A DNA stretch of 60,642 nucleotides. Source: a virus (taxonomy: Duplodnaviria > Heunggongvirae > Uroviricota > Caudoviricetes). Every line of letters begins with the position of its first letter. Positions within the stretch are counted from its first letter, which is position 1. The DNA lies in the IMG/VR virus record IMGVR_UViG_2721755676_000007, one strand, 5' to 3'. The notes beneath the pieces were generated by a model. The model had not been told where the DNA came from. It was given only the letters and a program-made list of their open reading frames with translations, and searched no databases. Both the position numbers and the translations under genes were made by a program. Positions 34,268 through 48,023 of the stretch are shown here, in pieces.

Positions 34268-34434
34268 AAAATGATAATAATTATCATCTGCATGTCACAA
34301 CGTGCATCTACGCAATCAAACCACGTCAAATAATCAATTATGACGCAGATATCGTATTAATTGATCTGCATCAACTTAACGTAAAAACAACTTCAGACAA
34401 TACAAATCAGCGACACTGAATACGGGACAACCTC

Positions 34435-34668
34435 ATGTCAACGAAGAACAGAACCCGCAGAACAACAACCCGCAACATCCGCTTTCCTAACCAAATGATT
34501 GAACAAATTAACATCGCTCTTGATCAAAAAGGGTCCGGGAATTTCTCAGCCTGGGTCATTGAAGCCTGCCGCCGGAGACTGTGCTCAGAAAAAAGAGTTT
34601 CTCCTGAAGCAAACAAAGAAAAGAGTGACATTACTGAATTGCTCAGAAAACAGATCAGACCAGATTGA
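34435..34668 (+). CDS. Small hypothetical protein (77 aa, possible ribbon-helix-helix)
   Basis: ORF between cos and the DUF1398 gene, antisense to the late operon. Confidence 0.4.
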   Translation: MSTKNRTRRTTTRNIRFPNQMIEQINIALDQKGSGNFSAWVIEACRRRLCSEKRVSPEANKEKSDITELLRKQIRPD

Positions 34669-34726
34669 AGCAATTTAGATAATCGTGCAGACTACGCCCC
34701 CCTCATATCACATGGAAGGTTTATCT

Positions 34727-35137
34727 ATGGATCAGGTAGTCATTTTTAAACAAATATTTGATAAAGTTCGAAACGATTTAAACTATCAATGGTTTTATTC
34801 TGAGCTAAAACGTCACAATGTCTCACATTACATTTACTATTTAGCCACAGAGAATGTTCATATTGTATTAAAAAATGATAATACAGTGTTATTAAAGGGC
34901 CTAAAAAACATTGTGTCTGTCAAATTTTCAAAGGATAGGCATCTTATAGAAACGACCTCTAATAAGCTGAAATCCAGAGAGATCACATTTCAGGAATACA
35001 GAAGAAACCTTGCTAAAGCAGGAGTTTTTCGGTGGGTTACAAATATCCACGAACAAAAAAGATATTACTATACCTTTGATAATTCATTACTCTTTACTGA
35101 AAACATACAGAGCACATCACAAATGTTTCCACACTAA
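34727..35137 (+). CDS. ybcV: DUF1398-family protein (YbcV-like)
   Basis: 136 aa from [31 protein letters not shown]; resembles DLP12 YbcV from memory. Confidence 0.6.
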
Positions 35138-35439
35138 ACCATAACGTCCGGTTTCTTCTACCCCTGCACCGGACTGGCTGACATGAAGAGCAACCCCGCG
35201 TTCAGTTGACGCGTTAATAACCCGGTGTGCATCGTTTTTGATTATTCCCGCACACTCACGCAGAAGGAATTCCCCGTCGGGCTACGGTCATGGTTAATGC
35301 GGGAATACGGCGACGATACAGCGCATGATGTGTCAGGCTTGAATACCTTTATCCGTTAAAAGGGATATCAGTTAAGTTATCCCGTGCAGGGTATAAGCCA
35401 TTATCAAGCCCCCCGTAGATAGGCTTTGTAATGACATCT

Positions 35440-35964
35440 TCAATTAATCAGCAGTTCAGGCTGTGTCACCTGCAAGATGTATTCATGCTCGACAGCCAGG
35501 ACACGCTTCTCTTTGTTCCGTTCGTTCATTAACCGACTGCCGATCGTACCTTTCAGCTTTGAGCGTGTTTCTTTGATGGCGTAGCGGTGCTGCATTTCTT
35601 CGCCAATTGCCATGCGGCGGCTCAGTTGTTCTGCCATCCAGTTGAATGCTGCGATATAGCTCTCCTTGATTGCCGCAGCAGCTTTCCCGGTGAACCCCAT
35701 CACAACCATGATCCAGCCATCTTTCGTCAGGCTGTACATCGGGCGAACCTTGCCCTGCTCATCGTTATAATCAGCCGACGCAAAATTGCGTTGGCTAAAC
35801 TCACGCGAGCAATCAGCCTTAACCTGCTCGATTTTCCTGAGAACATCACCGTGTCGCTTGCCGAAGTACTTGGCAATTTTTCTGGATGTGGTAACGACCT
35901 CTCCGTTTTTGGCTTGCACCATTTCTCGGAAGTCGAAGGCTGGAATAACTGAATGATTATTCAT
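35440..35964 (-). CDS. Phage regulatory protein Rha family
   Basis: From MNNHSVIPAFDFREMVQAKNGEVVTTSRKIAKYFGKRHGDVLRKIEQ, typical Rha N-terminal domain; ORF track extends 81 codons upstream. Confidence 0.7.
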   Translation of the reverse strand: MNNHSVIPAFDFREMVQAKNGEVVTTSRKIAKYFGKRHGDVLRKIEQVKADCSREFSQRNFASADYNDEQGKVRPMYSLTKDGWIMVVMGFTGKAAAAIKESYIAAFNWMAEQLSRRMAIGEEMQHRYAIKETRSKLKGTIGSRLMNERNKEKRVLAVEHEYILQVTQPELLIN

Positions 35965-36306
35965 AGCGTCTTTACCTTTTAGAAAGTGAGCCTGTCTCAC
36001 AGAAAAGCCGCCCGAGAGAGGTCGCCACCTATAACGGCATTTCTCAGGCTCGCTTACTGAAAGGCTCTCGTTAATATGCGCGTGAGATGCGCTGTGAAAT
36101 TCAGATATAAAAAGCCCCGCGAATGCGAGGCTAAATCCTGGTATTTGTAATGAACTGGCTCTTATCTCAACGCAGCCCCTTACTGCGCGCCAGATGCTCA
36201 ATATCAAGCATCAGCAATGAGATGTTTAATCTGGATTTACTCCAGAAGTGATCACCACCCTGTCTACAGAGCCAGATGTGAAGGATGATGAGTAAAATTA
36301 TCGCTA

Positions 36307-45665: not shown

Positions 45666-45909
45666 GGTGACACCTGCTAACGTATGCTTTTATAAATCTT
45701 AGTGGTGAGATATAATTTTTGTTTAATTTTTATTTAAAAAGACAATTACGATCACATTCTCTTGAATATACAACAATAATCGTATTGCAATTTGCTTACG
45801 CAATAATCTTGAAGGCACAAAAGAATACATAAAAACTAAAAACATTAACAAAAGCGGCCCATGTAAAGATATGAACCGCCATATTTCAGTCTTTTAAAAG
45901 AAATTATTT

Positions 45910-46242
45910 TTAATGTGGTGTGCTTCGTGACAATAAATTAATAACCAACACACCGGCACAAATCAACATCATGCCTATAACGGCTGGCAGGTCCAGCCGT
46001 TGGCCGAAAACCCCCCATGACAGTAAGCTAATCAGGACAATACCGACTCCTGACCAGATAGCATAAGCAATCCCTGTAGGAATATAAGCCAGCGTCTGAG
46101 CTAATAACCAGAATGATGCACAGTAACAAATAATTGTACCAACAGATGGCCATAACCGTGTAAAACCTTCTGAAAACTTCATTAAGGTTGTACCAATGAC
46201 CTCTGCAAGTATTGCACCACCAAGATAAATATAAGGATTCAT
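45910..46242 (-). CDS. emrE: Small multidrug resistance efflux transporter EmrE
   Basis: 110-aa four-TM ORF MNPYIYLGGAILAEVIGTTLMKFSEGF, EmrE. Confidence 0.92.
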   Translation of the reverse strand: MNPYIYLGGAILAEVIGTTLMKFSEGFTRLWPSVGTIICYCASFWLLAQTLAYIPTGIAYAIWSGVGIVLISLLSWGVFGQRLDLPAVIGMMLICAGVLVINLLSRSTPH

Positions 46243-46266
46243 AGCATATTCTTTCTGGATTTGCCC

Positions 46267-47172
46267 CTATATTTCCAGACACCTGTTATCACTTAACCCA
46301 TTACTGGCTTGCTGCCGTAGATATTCCCGTGGCGAGCGATAACCCAGTGCACTATGCGGATGCCATTCGTTATAATGCTCGAACGCCTCTGCAAGGTTCT
46401 TTGCTGCCGTTAACCCGTCTGGTTTGGGCATGACACTGATGTAGTCACGCTTTATCGTTTTCACGAAGCTCTCTGCTATGCCGTTACTCTCCGGACTCCG
46501 CACCGCCGTGCTCTTCGGTTCAAGCCCCAACATCCGGGCAAACTGCCGTGTTTCATTAGCCCGGTAGCATGAACCATTATCCGTCAGCCACTCTACTGGA
46601 GACGCCGGAAGCTCGTTGCCGAAGCGGCGTTCCACCGCTCCCAGCATGACGTCCTGTACTGTTTCACTGTTGAAGCCGCCCGTAGTGACCGCCCAGTGCA
46701 GTGCCTCACGGTCACAGCAGTCCAGCGCGAACGTGACTCGCAGTTTTTCTCCGTTATCACAGCGGAACTCGAACCCGTCAGAGCACCATCGCTGATTACT
46801 TTCTTTCACAGCCACTCTGCCTGTATGTGCCCGTTTCGATGGCGGTACAGCAGGTTTTCGCTCAAGCAACAGCGCATTCTGGCGCATGATCCGGTAAACA
46901 CGTTTGGCATTGATCGCAGGCATACCATCAAGTTCTGCCTGTCTGCGAAGCAGCGCCCATACCCGACGATAACCATACGTGGGCAGCTCTCCGATAACAT
47001 GGTGTATACGGAGAAGCACATCCGTATCATCAGTGTGACGACTGCGGCGGCCATCCATCCAGTCATCGGTTCGTCTGAGAATGACGTGCAACTGCGCACG
47101 CGACACCCGGAGACAACGGCTGACTAAGCTTACTCCCCATCCCCGGGCAATAAGGGCGCGTGCGCTATCCAC
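46267..47172 (-). CDS. insD: IS2 transposase InsD (orfB)
   Basis: 301-aa [37 protein letters not shown] with DDE domain. Confidence 0.92.
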
Positions 47173-47495
47173 TTTTTTGCCCGTCCATATTCAACGGCTT
47201 CTTTGAGGAGTTCATTTTCCATCGTTTTCTTGCCGAGCAGGCGCTGGAGTTCTTTAATCTGCTTCATGGCGGCAGCAAGTTCAGAGGCAGGAACAACCTG
47301 TTCTCCGGCGGCGACAGCAGTAAGACTTCCTTCCTGGTATTGCTTACGCCAGAGAAATAACTGGCTGGCTGCTACACCATGTTGCCGGGCAACGAGGGAG
47401 ACCGTCATCCCCGGTTCAAAGCTCTGCTGAACAATTGCGATCTTTTCCTGTGTGGTACGCCGTCTGCGTTTCTCCGGTCCTAAGACATCAATCAT
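47130..47495 (-). CDS. insC: IS2 InsC (orfA)
   Basis: From [26 protein letters not shown]; overlaps insD as expected for the IS3-family frameshift arrangement. Confidence 0.88.
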
Positions 47496-48023
47496 CTGCT
47501 CTCCAATGACTAGTCTAAAAACTAGTATTAAGACTATCACTTAAATAAGTGATACTGGTTGTCTGGAGATTCAGGGGGCCAGTCTACTTTCCTGTTCAAA
47601 CTGGAGAGAATTGTACTACAGATTGAACTCAACTCACCGGTTTCATCATTGTGTATCCATTGATGTTCTTTTGTATACCCTCAATATCCGTTTCATCGCG
47701 GTACTCCGGCGACACTCCTTAAAAATCAGGTTCGGCTCACCTTTCCTGCCCGTTCTCCCCGGGTAGCAAACCGATAATACACCGTTCGCCAGTCCTTACT
47801 ATCAATGACCAAGATTCCTGCCCATATCATTTTAGCCGCAGCCTAATTTATGCTGGTTATTGTTACGTGTGAATTCAGTTAGCTGCATAAATTGTCACGG
47901 AAGTGATACATCGATATTATCGAGAAATTCACTCGAATTTATACGATTGAAACTGCACTTATATCTGTTTTAAATACTCCGAACACTCTTTACAACAACT
48001 GTGTGAAAATGGAGATAATTAAA

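Follow-up and report, generated by a model that had tools for sequence, protein, structure and literature searches.

The DLP12-Type nin-Q-Lysis Region of a Lambda-Like Prophage Located Next to ybhC

Organization of the Prophage

The IMG/VR virus record IMGVR_UViG_2721755676_000007 (60,642 nt, Caudoviricetes), in the following called the window, contains a reverse-oriented lambda-like prophage, which runs from the tail fibre genes via J-Nu1, cos, the lysis genes, Q, the nin genes, P, O, the immunity region, and gam-exo to xis-int, with the host gene ybhC at the right end. The region studied here comprises positions 34268-47591; it starts 32 bp to the right of cosN and ends with the right target duplication of the insertion sequence (IS) IS2. 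A preliminary description of this region had proposed a mosaic in which lambda structural and integration modules are joined to a DLP12/phage-82-like nin-Q-lysis block. We are highly confident that it represents the early-right, late-control, and lysis module set in the right arm of a widespread lambda-like temperate lineage, carried by a prophage at att-lambda next to ybhC, and that it is an element of a known kind.

The window was compared by blastn to lambda (NC_001416), the DLP12 region of Escherichia coli K-12 (NC_000913.3, 564.8-586.1 kb), phage PhiR70_1, and the prophage of strain WP8-S17-ESBL-05 (in the following WP8). Outside the studied region, lambda-like arms were observed with 93-98% identity over approximately 26 kb of the window (Table 1), i.e., in stretches that would permit recombination with lambda. 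The flanks of cosN are also identical to lambda, and cosN is the border between the packaging/head arm and the late-regulation/lysis arm. According to open reading frame (ORF) and family assignments and to the collinearity with lambda and PhiR70_1, the lambdoid gene order is present, i.e., int-xis, recombination, immunity, O-P, nin, Q, lysis, cos, packaging, head, and tail. The int-xis-attP segment abuts ybhC, which is the position of the classical att-lambda site. A tRNA scan of the whole window revealed no tRNA gene.

Thus defined, the prophage shares with lambda an identical cosN, the segments from Nu1 to J, P, gam-exo, and xis-int-attP at 93-98%, the overall gene order, and the integration site. 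In contrast, lambda has its own ninB-ninI, Q, S, R (encoding a transglycosylase), and bor where the prophage has a DLP12-type block, and its immunity region is a different one. Within the studied region, matches to lambda at ≥90% are restricted to 575 bp (330 bp by cos and a 245-bp patch in Rz), corresponding to 5.4% of the non-IS bases.

The former assignment of tfa through Nu1 and of gam through int to lambda is borne out by matches of 93-98%, but a 10.9-kb island in gene B had not been mentioned, and to the left of position 5320 the identity is 79-87% or less. In positions 1-5320, comprising the J C-terminus, lom, stf, and tfa, the window is 79-87% lambda-like or unmatched, and from position 2765 it is 94.8% identical to PhiR70_1. 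Due to this low similarity, the receptor-binding end of the prophage differs from that of lambda. The immunity region (50957-53212) is of the YdaS/YdaT plus S24-repressor type and unlike that of lambda. The place expected for N is occupied by a gene for a BamE-like lipoprotein (52832-53212), assigned by a Pfam match below threshold.

Table 1. Homology segments, breakpoints, and genes of the window and the studied region, ordered by position within each group.
Feature	Position	Strand	Remarks
Lambda match: J to B	5321-19680		96.6-97.4% identity
Lambda match: B', W, A, Nu1	30567-34235		98.4% identity
Lambda match: right end next to cos	34236-34597		94.5% identity
Lambda match: P, O C-terminus	49158-50407		93.4% identity
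Lambda match: gam, bet, exo and neighbours	53893-56707		96.9% identity
Lambda match: xis, int, attP	57681-59312		97.9% identity
DLP12 match: aaaD', nohD, ylcI	33219-34597		97.8% identity
DLP12 match: ybcV	34648-35325		81% identity
DLP12 match: rzpD, rrrD, essD, nmpC	36530-39095		98.3% identity
DLP12 match: nmpC 3' end, quuD, ylcG, rusA, ybcO, ninE, ybcN, ylcH	39087-41398		97.5% identity
DLP12 match: ybcK, ylcJ, emrE	44100-46255		96.3% identity
DLP12 match: renD	47587-47858		90.5% identity
Breakpoint	~34597		cos-proximal lambda/DLP12 identity ends
Breakpoint	35325/36530		Rha cassette instead of bor
Breakpoint	39811		ylcG/Q border relative to phage 82
Breakpoint	41398		just upstream of ylcH; coincides with a promoter-like site annotated in the phage 82 record
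Breakpoint	44100		~40 bp downstream of ybcK
cosN	34224-34235	-	12-nt cohesive end GGGCGGCGACCT; same letters as the lambda end/start junction; lambda high-scoring segment pairs (HSPs) jump from position 1 to 48502 at 34235/34236
ylcI/ynfO-like gene (DUF3950)	34435-34668	+	Pfam DUF3950 74.8 bits; inside the 97.8% DLP12 match
ybcV-like gene (DUF1398)	34727-35137	+	Pfam DUF1398 157 bits; ~81% DLP12, ~80% lambda p78, 99-100% PhiR70_1 and WP8
Rha-family regulator gene	35440-35964	-	Pfam Phage_pRha 98 bits, phrog_518; at the bor/borD position; also in PhiR70_1 and WP8
Rz-type i-spanin gene (rzpD-like)	36307-36774	-	ORF translation; 98.3% DLP12 from 36530; 245-bp patch 98.8% lambda Rz
Rz1/rzoD-type lipoprotein ORF	36348-36554		embedded in the Rz gene; lipobox in ...LIMVAGCSS
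rrrD, endolysin of R21/RrrD type	36771-37268	-	PDB 4zpu (Lysozyme RrrD) E 4e-110; PDB 3hde E 3e-109; hydrophobic N-terminal segment
essD, class II holin/antiholin	37268-37483	-	71 aa; MKSM dual start (MKSMDK)
Terminator-like hairpin with T-run, candidate tR'	37607-37628	-	~125 bp upstream of essD; consensus scan
nmpC-type porin gene	38056-39153	+	opposite to the late genes; NCBIfam OmpC subfamily 529.8 bits (cut-off 484); 99.4-99.8% K-12 nmpC
quuD, late antiterminator Q of DLP12 type	39343-39726	-	127 aa; phrog_79 (Q-like) E 6e-54
nin block: ylcH, ybcN, ninE, ybcO, rusA, ylcG	39812-41314	-	right to left; 97.5% DLP12; 95.8% phage 82 orf33-orf45; gene calls from the identical WP8 annotation
ylcH	41213-41314	-	retained
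260-aa protein gene	41409-42191	-	N-terminal HNH-like zinc-finger nuclease domain and beta-rich C-terminal domain; replaces ybcL-ybcM
107-aa protein gene	42366-42689	-	P22 antirepressor C-terminal domain alone; Pfam P22_AR_C 52.4 bits (cut-off 22.4); phrog_7640
IS10 (ISVsa5-like)	42718-44046	+	1329 bp; IS4-family transposase 404 bits; IS10 outside-end sequence
ybcK, large serine recombinase homologue	44139-45665	-	508 aa; Pfam Resolvase, Recombinase, Zn_ribbon_recom; 96.3% DLP12
emrE, small multidrug resistance (SMR) efflux	45910-46242	-	NCBIfam SMR_efflux_EmrE 238 bits (cut-off 226); ATG 13 bp from the IS2 end
IS2	46256-47586	-	1331 bp; NCBIfam IS2 TnpB 713 bits, TnpA 276 bits, both above cut-off; between emrE and the ren remnant
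ren 3' remnant	47587-47867	-	90.5% DLP12 renD, 85.6% lambda ren; annotated as ren pseudogene in WP8

Similarity to DLP12 and Phage 82

IS elements account for 20.0% of the studied region, and of the remaining bases 69.0% match K-12 DLP12 at ≥90% identity, chiefly in three collinear blocks of 96.3-98.3%. The DLP12-like character that had been described from the cos-distal side to emrE was thereby confirmed and is far beyond chance. All nine DLP12 HSPs are collinear with the window in one order and orientation (exoD, peaD, renD, emrE...quuD, nmpC...rzpD, ybcV, ylcI-nohD-aaaD', and tfaD), i.e., DLP12 has its own lambda-like flanks (nohD/aaaD, renD, peaD, and exoD), which are ordered as in the window. 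The DLP12-type gene set and order of the nin-Q-lysis block are complete, with emrE, ybcK, an accessory cassette, ylcH, ybcN, ninE, ybcO, rusA, ylcG, quuD, nmpC on the opposite strand, essD, rrrD, and rzpD/rzoD.

Except for these shared genes, several K-12 extras are not kept: ybcL-ybcM is replaced by genes for a 260-aa and a 107-aa protein, borD by the Rha gene, and ybcW is absent. As seen from PhiR70_1, the ybcL-ybcM, borD, and ybcW slots are variable within the lineage. Accordingly positioned are the 2.6 kb of the studied region that match neither lambda nor DLP12; they are located chiefly in 35326-36529, with the Rha-family gene and a 50-aa ORF at the bor position, and in 41399-42717, with the 260-aa and 107-aa protein genes at the ybcL-ybcM position. 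DLP12 itself differs further by its location at argU with another integrase, by the loss of immunity, replication, and virion genes, by nmpC::IS5 and renD::IS3, and by a ybcV gene that is only 81% identical to the copy in the window.

Alignment to lambda and DLP12 with mapping of the breakpoints, which had been proposed as a check, supports the description and yields the borders compiled in Table 1. Modular mosaicism of lambdoid phages is textbook knowledge, and the location of the breakpoints at or near gene borders fits the established modular exchange among these phages. The right border at 47591 that had been assigned to the block is no edge of homology; it is the end of the IS2 target duplication, and similarity to DLP12 extends beyond it into the remnants of ren and P. 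On the right, the non-lambda block actually ends with the ren remnant. A gene encoding an outer-membrane beta-barrel protein (48024-48752, plus strand; Pfam OMP_b-brl 84 bits, weak Lom-like PHROG match) is inserted within ren, with ren fragments on either side. It is present in the WP8 prophage too, but neither in lambda nor in DLP12 or PhiR70_1.

The likeness to phage 82 holds for one part of the block only. The phage 82 record X92588 matches 39811-41398 at 95.8%, a segment which comprises orf33, orf151, orf56, orf96, rus, and orf45, and the similarity breaks off precisely where Q begins (position 1637), which is also the case for K-12 DLP12. In the phage 82 record, the Q coding sequence (1633-2322) has 690 bp compared to 384 bp of quuD here, and an 82-type Q following orf45 was not found. 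Instead, Q is of the QuuD type. It is distantly related to Q21, as its residues 13-92 match the Q protein structures PDB 6p18/6jnx (E 7e-8). Of the phage-82-like nin-Q-lysis block formerly described, the nin genes were thus retained; Q is of the 127-aa QuuD type, and the lysis genes are of the phage-21/RrrD type.

Late Regulation and Lysis Genes

In the order of transcription, the minus strand of the block carries emrE, ybcK, the 107-aa and 260-aa protein genes, ylcH-ylcG, quuD, essD, rrrD, Rz/Rz1, the 50-aa ORF, and Rha, with nmpC situated between quuD and essD on the plus strand; the ybcV-like and ylcI-like genes follow on the plus strand. The endolysin differs from K-12 RrrD (PDB 4zpu) in three residues and is also similar to PDB 3hde, the phage 21 endolysin. 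A 71-aa holin with an MKSM start in combination with an RrrD-type endolysin represents the phage-21 type of pinholin and signal-anchor-release (SAR) endolysin. The homologues in the record of phage 434B are annotated as class II holin/antiholin and SAR endolysin.

Phage 21 and the prophage have in common the endolysin type, the dual start of the 71-aa holin, and the distantly related Q. They differ in that the phage 21 genome matches the holin gene only, with 77% DNA identity, and in that the similarity to Q21 is partial (residues 13-92). Placement of the late promoter through phage 21 homology was dropped for the former reason. A terminator-like hairpin is a candidate for tR' of the late promoter region; in the 60-80 bp around it, matches of 77-92% were observed in phiP27, mEp460, and one stx2c-phage q-region record. 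The nmpC gene is intact and free of IS5. It is presumably the counterpart of lc, a porin gene of phage PA-2.

Following the lambdoid paradigm, transcription after induction would start at the early-right promoter and reach quuD by way of O, P, and the nin genes. QuuD would then render RNA polymerase resistant to terminators at the late promoter, which is probably situated between nmpC and essD. The lysis proteins would thereby be made, namely a holin/antiholin of the phage-21 type, the endolysin RrrD, and the spanins Rz and Rz1, and beyond cos transcription would extend over Nu1 and A to the genes for head and tail. Probable accessory genes that are expressed in the lysogen are nmpC, emrE, and the gene for the outer-membrane protein within ren.

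Related Prophages and Origin of the Region

The att-lambda prophage of WP8-S17-ESBL-05 (NZ_AP022215.1, 3.22-3.26 Mb) covers 100% of the non-IS bases of the studied region at 99.6-100% identity. Integration site and gene order are alike, the non-IS bases of the studied region to the right of 34164 are identical except for one mismatch, and over the right arm as far as ybhC the identity amounts to 99.97%. Differences are given by the lack of IS10, IS2, and the 10.9-kb satellite in gene B, and by the head/tail arm, which is 98.9% identical. The mismatches show a step beside cos, with 5 in approximately 24 kb to the right of 34164 and 209 in approximately 18 kb to the left. This step shows that one of the arms was exchanged very recently, with the breakpoint close to cos.

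The plaque-forming phage PhiR70_1 (PV340577.1; host given as E. coli C) matches the window continuously at 97.1% over 30567-41398, comprising the portal 5' part, A, Nu1, cos, ybcV, Rha, and the lysis, porin, Q, and nin genes, and the match resumes at 96.3% over 44100-46255 (ybcK-emrE). Both share the lambda-type int, recombination, O/P, and Nu1-A-head-tail genes as well as the block from emrE and ybcK to Q, porin, S, R, Rz, Rha, and ybcV. PhiR70_1 differs by ybcL-ybcM in place of the 260-aa and 107-aa protein genes, a porin allele with 80-93% identity in part, an intact ren, another immunity region, and its own IS4 and IS2 fragments. The mosaic reading had been set against continuous identity to a single known phage across the whole region. 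Such identity was observed to a large extent, in two segments for PhiR70_1 and over all non-IS bases for WP8. The description as a mosaic of joined lambda and DLP12 modules therefore stands relative to the lambda reference, but the join is not particular to this prophage.

In strain VL46, a relative with 95-98% identity occupies this chromosomal site as well and likewise has the accessory pair. At least 80% of 31600-42718 is carried contiguously by 199 of 5426 complete E. coli genomes (~4%), and 36 phage records cover at least 80% of the Q-porin-holin segment. Among cultured gut Lambdavirus isolates, two with EmrE were reported by Mathieu et al. (PMC6969025). The combination of lambda-type virion genes with a DLP12-type nin-Q-lysis block is thus already known from cultured phages and from about 4% of the complete E. 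coli genomes.

Relative to laboratory lambda, another standard lambdoid module set takes the place of ninB-ninI, Q, S, R, and bor between ren and cos, namely the one whose K-12 remnant is called DLP12. Since PhiR70_1, WP8, and DLP12 all share the continuous or collinear structure, the architecture is ancestral to a widespread lineage and no hybrid of lambda and DLP12. Because DLP12 is collinear with the whole window and has the same lambda-like flanks, it is best explained as having arisen by deletions from a phage that had this backbone, and not as the donor.

A recent hybrid, i.e., a lambda-like phage that took the nin-Q-lysis block from a DLP12-type cryptic prophage in its host, is considered very unlikely, although captures of this kind do occur. 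The lambda qsr' derivatives in K-12 arose by recombination with a DLP12-type prophage, and the record of phage 434B (OL657227) contains K-12 Q-nmpC::IS5-holin (99.4% identity) and has a crossover marked within ylcG. The 434B phage shares the DLP12 version of Q-nmpC-holin with the window, but its copy keeps the K-12 IS5 in nmpC, and this capture is a separate, laboratory event. Furthermore, nmpC-quuD is 99.4-99.8% identical to K-12 DLP12 compared to 97-98% in the adjoining segments. Due to this excess over the neighbouring identity, some recent exchange between the lineages of the window and of DLP12 is likely. As opposed to a hybrid origin of the entire block, the same architecture including the cos-side junction is shared by PhiR70_1, many further cultured phages, and the 199 complete genomes. 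The block, moreover, has an intact nmpC and is unlike K-12 DLP12 at bor/Rha, ybcV, ybcW, and ybcL-ybcM, and the lambda-like flanks found in the same order in DLP12 fit common descent.

An assembly chimera or a contamination, in which laboratory lambda DNA would have been joined to a DLP12-like locus, can hardly be credited. Nothing more than the high lambda identity of the arms points in this direction, and with 96-98% instead of 100% even these arms are not laboratory lambda. The same structure at 99.6-100% identity is present in the independent complete genome of WP8-S17-ESBL-05, and both IS elements have clean target duplications and matching empty sites.

Besides the elevated nmpC-quuD identity, several points weigh against the assignment to the module set of a widespread lambda-like lineage. 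The left prophage end falls outside the window, so that the prophage is seen without that end. The functional steps of the lysis and late-control scheme are predicted from the paradigm. The late promoter was missed in scans for promoter consensus sequences, and homology to the phage 21 genome is limited to the holin gene and does not extend upstream of essD. No N homologue was recognized in the YdaS/YdaT-type immunity region, and hence read-through of IS2 and IS10 toward quuD is uncertain. None of the results contradicts the identification as a module set of a lambda-like prophage. The value of the analysis lies in a correct annotation, that is, in exact coordinates of module boundaries and IS elements, a Q that is not of the 82 type, lysis genes of the RrrD/phage-21 kind, and DLP12 as a deleted relative.

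IS10 and IS2 Insertions

Both IS elements noted before are present, namely IS10 (IS4 family) and IS2 (IS3 family, with the two ORFs for TnpA and TnpB). IS10 is flanked by 9-bp target duplications (ACCATAGCT) at 42709-42717 and 44047-44055, IS2 by 5-bp duplications (CTTTC) at 46251-46255 and 47587-47591, and the WP8 prophage has an uninterrupted target site at both positions. In a scan of the whole window against Rfam, RNA-OUT of IS10 (42763-42832, minus strand; 99.5 bits) was the sole match, and no other family was detected. With the outside end of IS10 at the left, pOUT and RNA-OUT face the 107-aa protein gene, the HNH-like gene, the nin genes, rusA, and quuD, and the 107-aa protein gene has its start codon 29 bp from the IS10 end. 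The IS10 junction of the window occurs in none of the 5426 complete E. coli genomes. In case of IS2, the end lies 13 bp from the emrE ATG, inside the ribosome-binding region of emrE.

IS2 copies beside the 5' end of emrE were observed at several independent sites or contexts (at least 3). In prophages of the VL46 type, IS2 is located 113 bp further on (GGCAC) than in the window. A remnant beside fliE has an emrE gene that is truncated by IS2. In K-12, an IS3 is found in renD. The repeated occurrence of IS2 beside emrE may reflect a target hot spot or selection.

Activation of the quiescent K-12 rusA gene by upstream insertions of IS2 or IS10 has been reported (PMC1636454). Both of these activating types are located upstream of rusA here, in sense orientation. 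The parallel to the K-12 insertions is suggestive, and it is tempting to speculate that the IS insertions of the window represent a selected rewiring, as a natural counterpart of the laboratory insertions, and not neutral decay. IS10 pOUT would then drive the accessory genes, rusA, and possibly quuD within the repressed prophage, and IS2 would take over emrE expression, so that EmrE, the HNH-like protein, and RusA would be made in the repressed lysogen. If true, recurrent IS2 and IS3 in the ren-emrE interval would be a footprint of selection. Favourable to this idea are the direction of RNA-OUT/pOUT toward the nin genes, the short distances of the IS ends to the start codons of the 107-aa protein gene and emrE, the K-12 precedent, and the recurrence of IS elements in this interval. 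Still, we regard selection as unlikely. rusA is located 2.4 kb downstream of IS10 and 5.9 kb downstream of IS2, and the lack of the IS10 junction in any other complete genome fits a recent and possibly neutral event. In addition, IS build-up is commonplace in prophages, and in two of the cases in which IS2 adjoins emrE, the junction is a border of a deletion in a remnant.

Accessory Genes in the ybcL-ybcM Slot

An HNH-like gene pair had been described in place of ybcL-ybcM-ylcH. A cassette is indeed located in the ybcL-ybcM slot, but ylcH is present next to it, and of the pair itself the 260-aa protein alone is HNH-like, with a score below threshold; its 107-aa neighbour is a P22 antirepressor C-terminal domain.

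The 260-aa protein matches phrog_6544 (E 3e-141) and the HNH family phrog_7785 (E 6e-4). For Pfam HNH (PF01844), 18.2 bits were obtained with the N-terminal 92 aa and 14.4 bits with the whole protein, both of which remain below the gathering cut-off of 21.4. With regard to the CxxC...H...N...CxxC pattern expected of a zinc-finger beta-beta-alpha-metal core, C29, C32, H41, C61, and N65 are invariant among 28 homologues and C64 is nearly so. The AlphaFold2 (AF2) model has a predicted local distance difference test (pLDDT) score of 85.6. In a Foldseek search of the PDB, the best partial matches were the HNH nucleases Cap5 and McrA (probability 0.87-0.95, but E ≥ 0.06). Nothing significant was found there over the whole protein, with the beta-rich C-terminal domain unmatched, and a PDB sequence search returned no match.

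The family has no Pfam domain and occurs from Enterobacteriaceae to Burkholderia, Comamonas, Pseudomonas, and Vibrio with 50-60% identity over the full length; among phage records, tblastn detected a single Klebsiella phage (62%). A PADLOC scan of the 260-aa, 107-aa, Rha, YbcK, outer-membrane, and satellite proteins gave no match to a defence system. An obligate two-gene system of the 260-aa and 107-aa protein genes was ruled out, since in Enterobacter prophages the 260-aa homologue is located right after O-P without a gene for the antirepressor domain. A conserved, uncharacterized HNH-like family is thereby flagged in the variable ybcL-ybcM slot.

Satellite Island and Adjacent Genes

The portal gene B is interrupted by a satellite island of 10.9 kb (19681-30579), whose genes are co-oriented with the late genes. 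Based on Pfam and PHROG matches, these genes encode an integrase, an AlpA-type regulator, a D5-type primase, a single-stranded DNA-binding protein (SSB), an E-like capsid protein, a D-like decoration protein, and a Nu1-like small terminase. The repeat ATCGCCTT, an att core, flanks the island at 19673-19680 and 30572-30579, and excision would restore the intact B sequence of the WP8 type (...CATACATCGCCTTCACAATGG...). The island is present in 52 complete E. coli genomes with 99.5-99.9% identity, in several cases between two portal fragments. For helper-embedded phage-inducible chromosomal islands (PICIs), sites in genes A, B, C, and E were described by Mageeney et al. (PMC10111431). With its size, gene content, co-orientation, and att repeat in a late gene of the helper, the island fits this known class.

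Compared to WP8, the prophage thus contains three insertions, i.e., IS2 and IS10 in the early-right operon upstream of Q, and the island in the portal gene. Because of these insertions, this copy is decaying or conditionally functional in comparison to its uninterrupted WP8 twin.

Between a TraR-like gene and xis, an ORF of 200 aa (56906-57508, minus strand) is located on the opposite strand. It has no Pfam hit, its C-terminal 88 aa alone match a PHROG of unknown function, and it stands in for ea22/ea8.5 of lambda.

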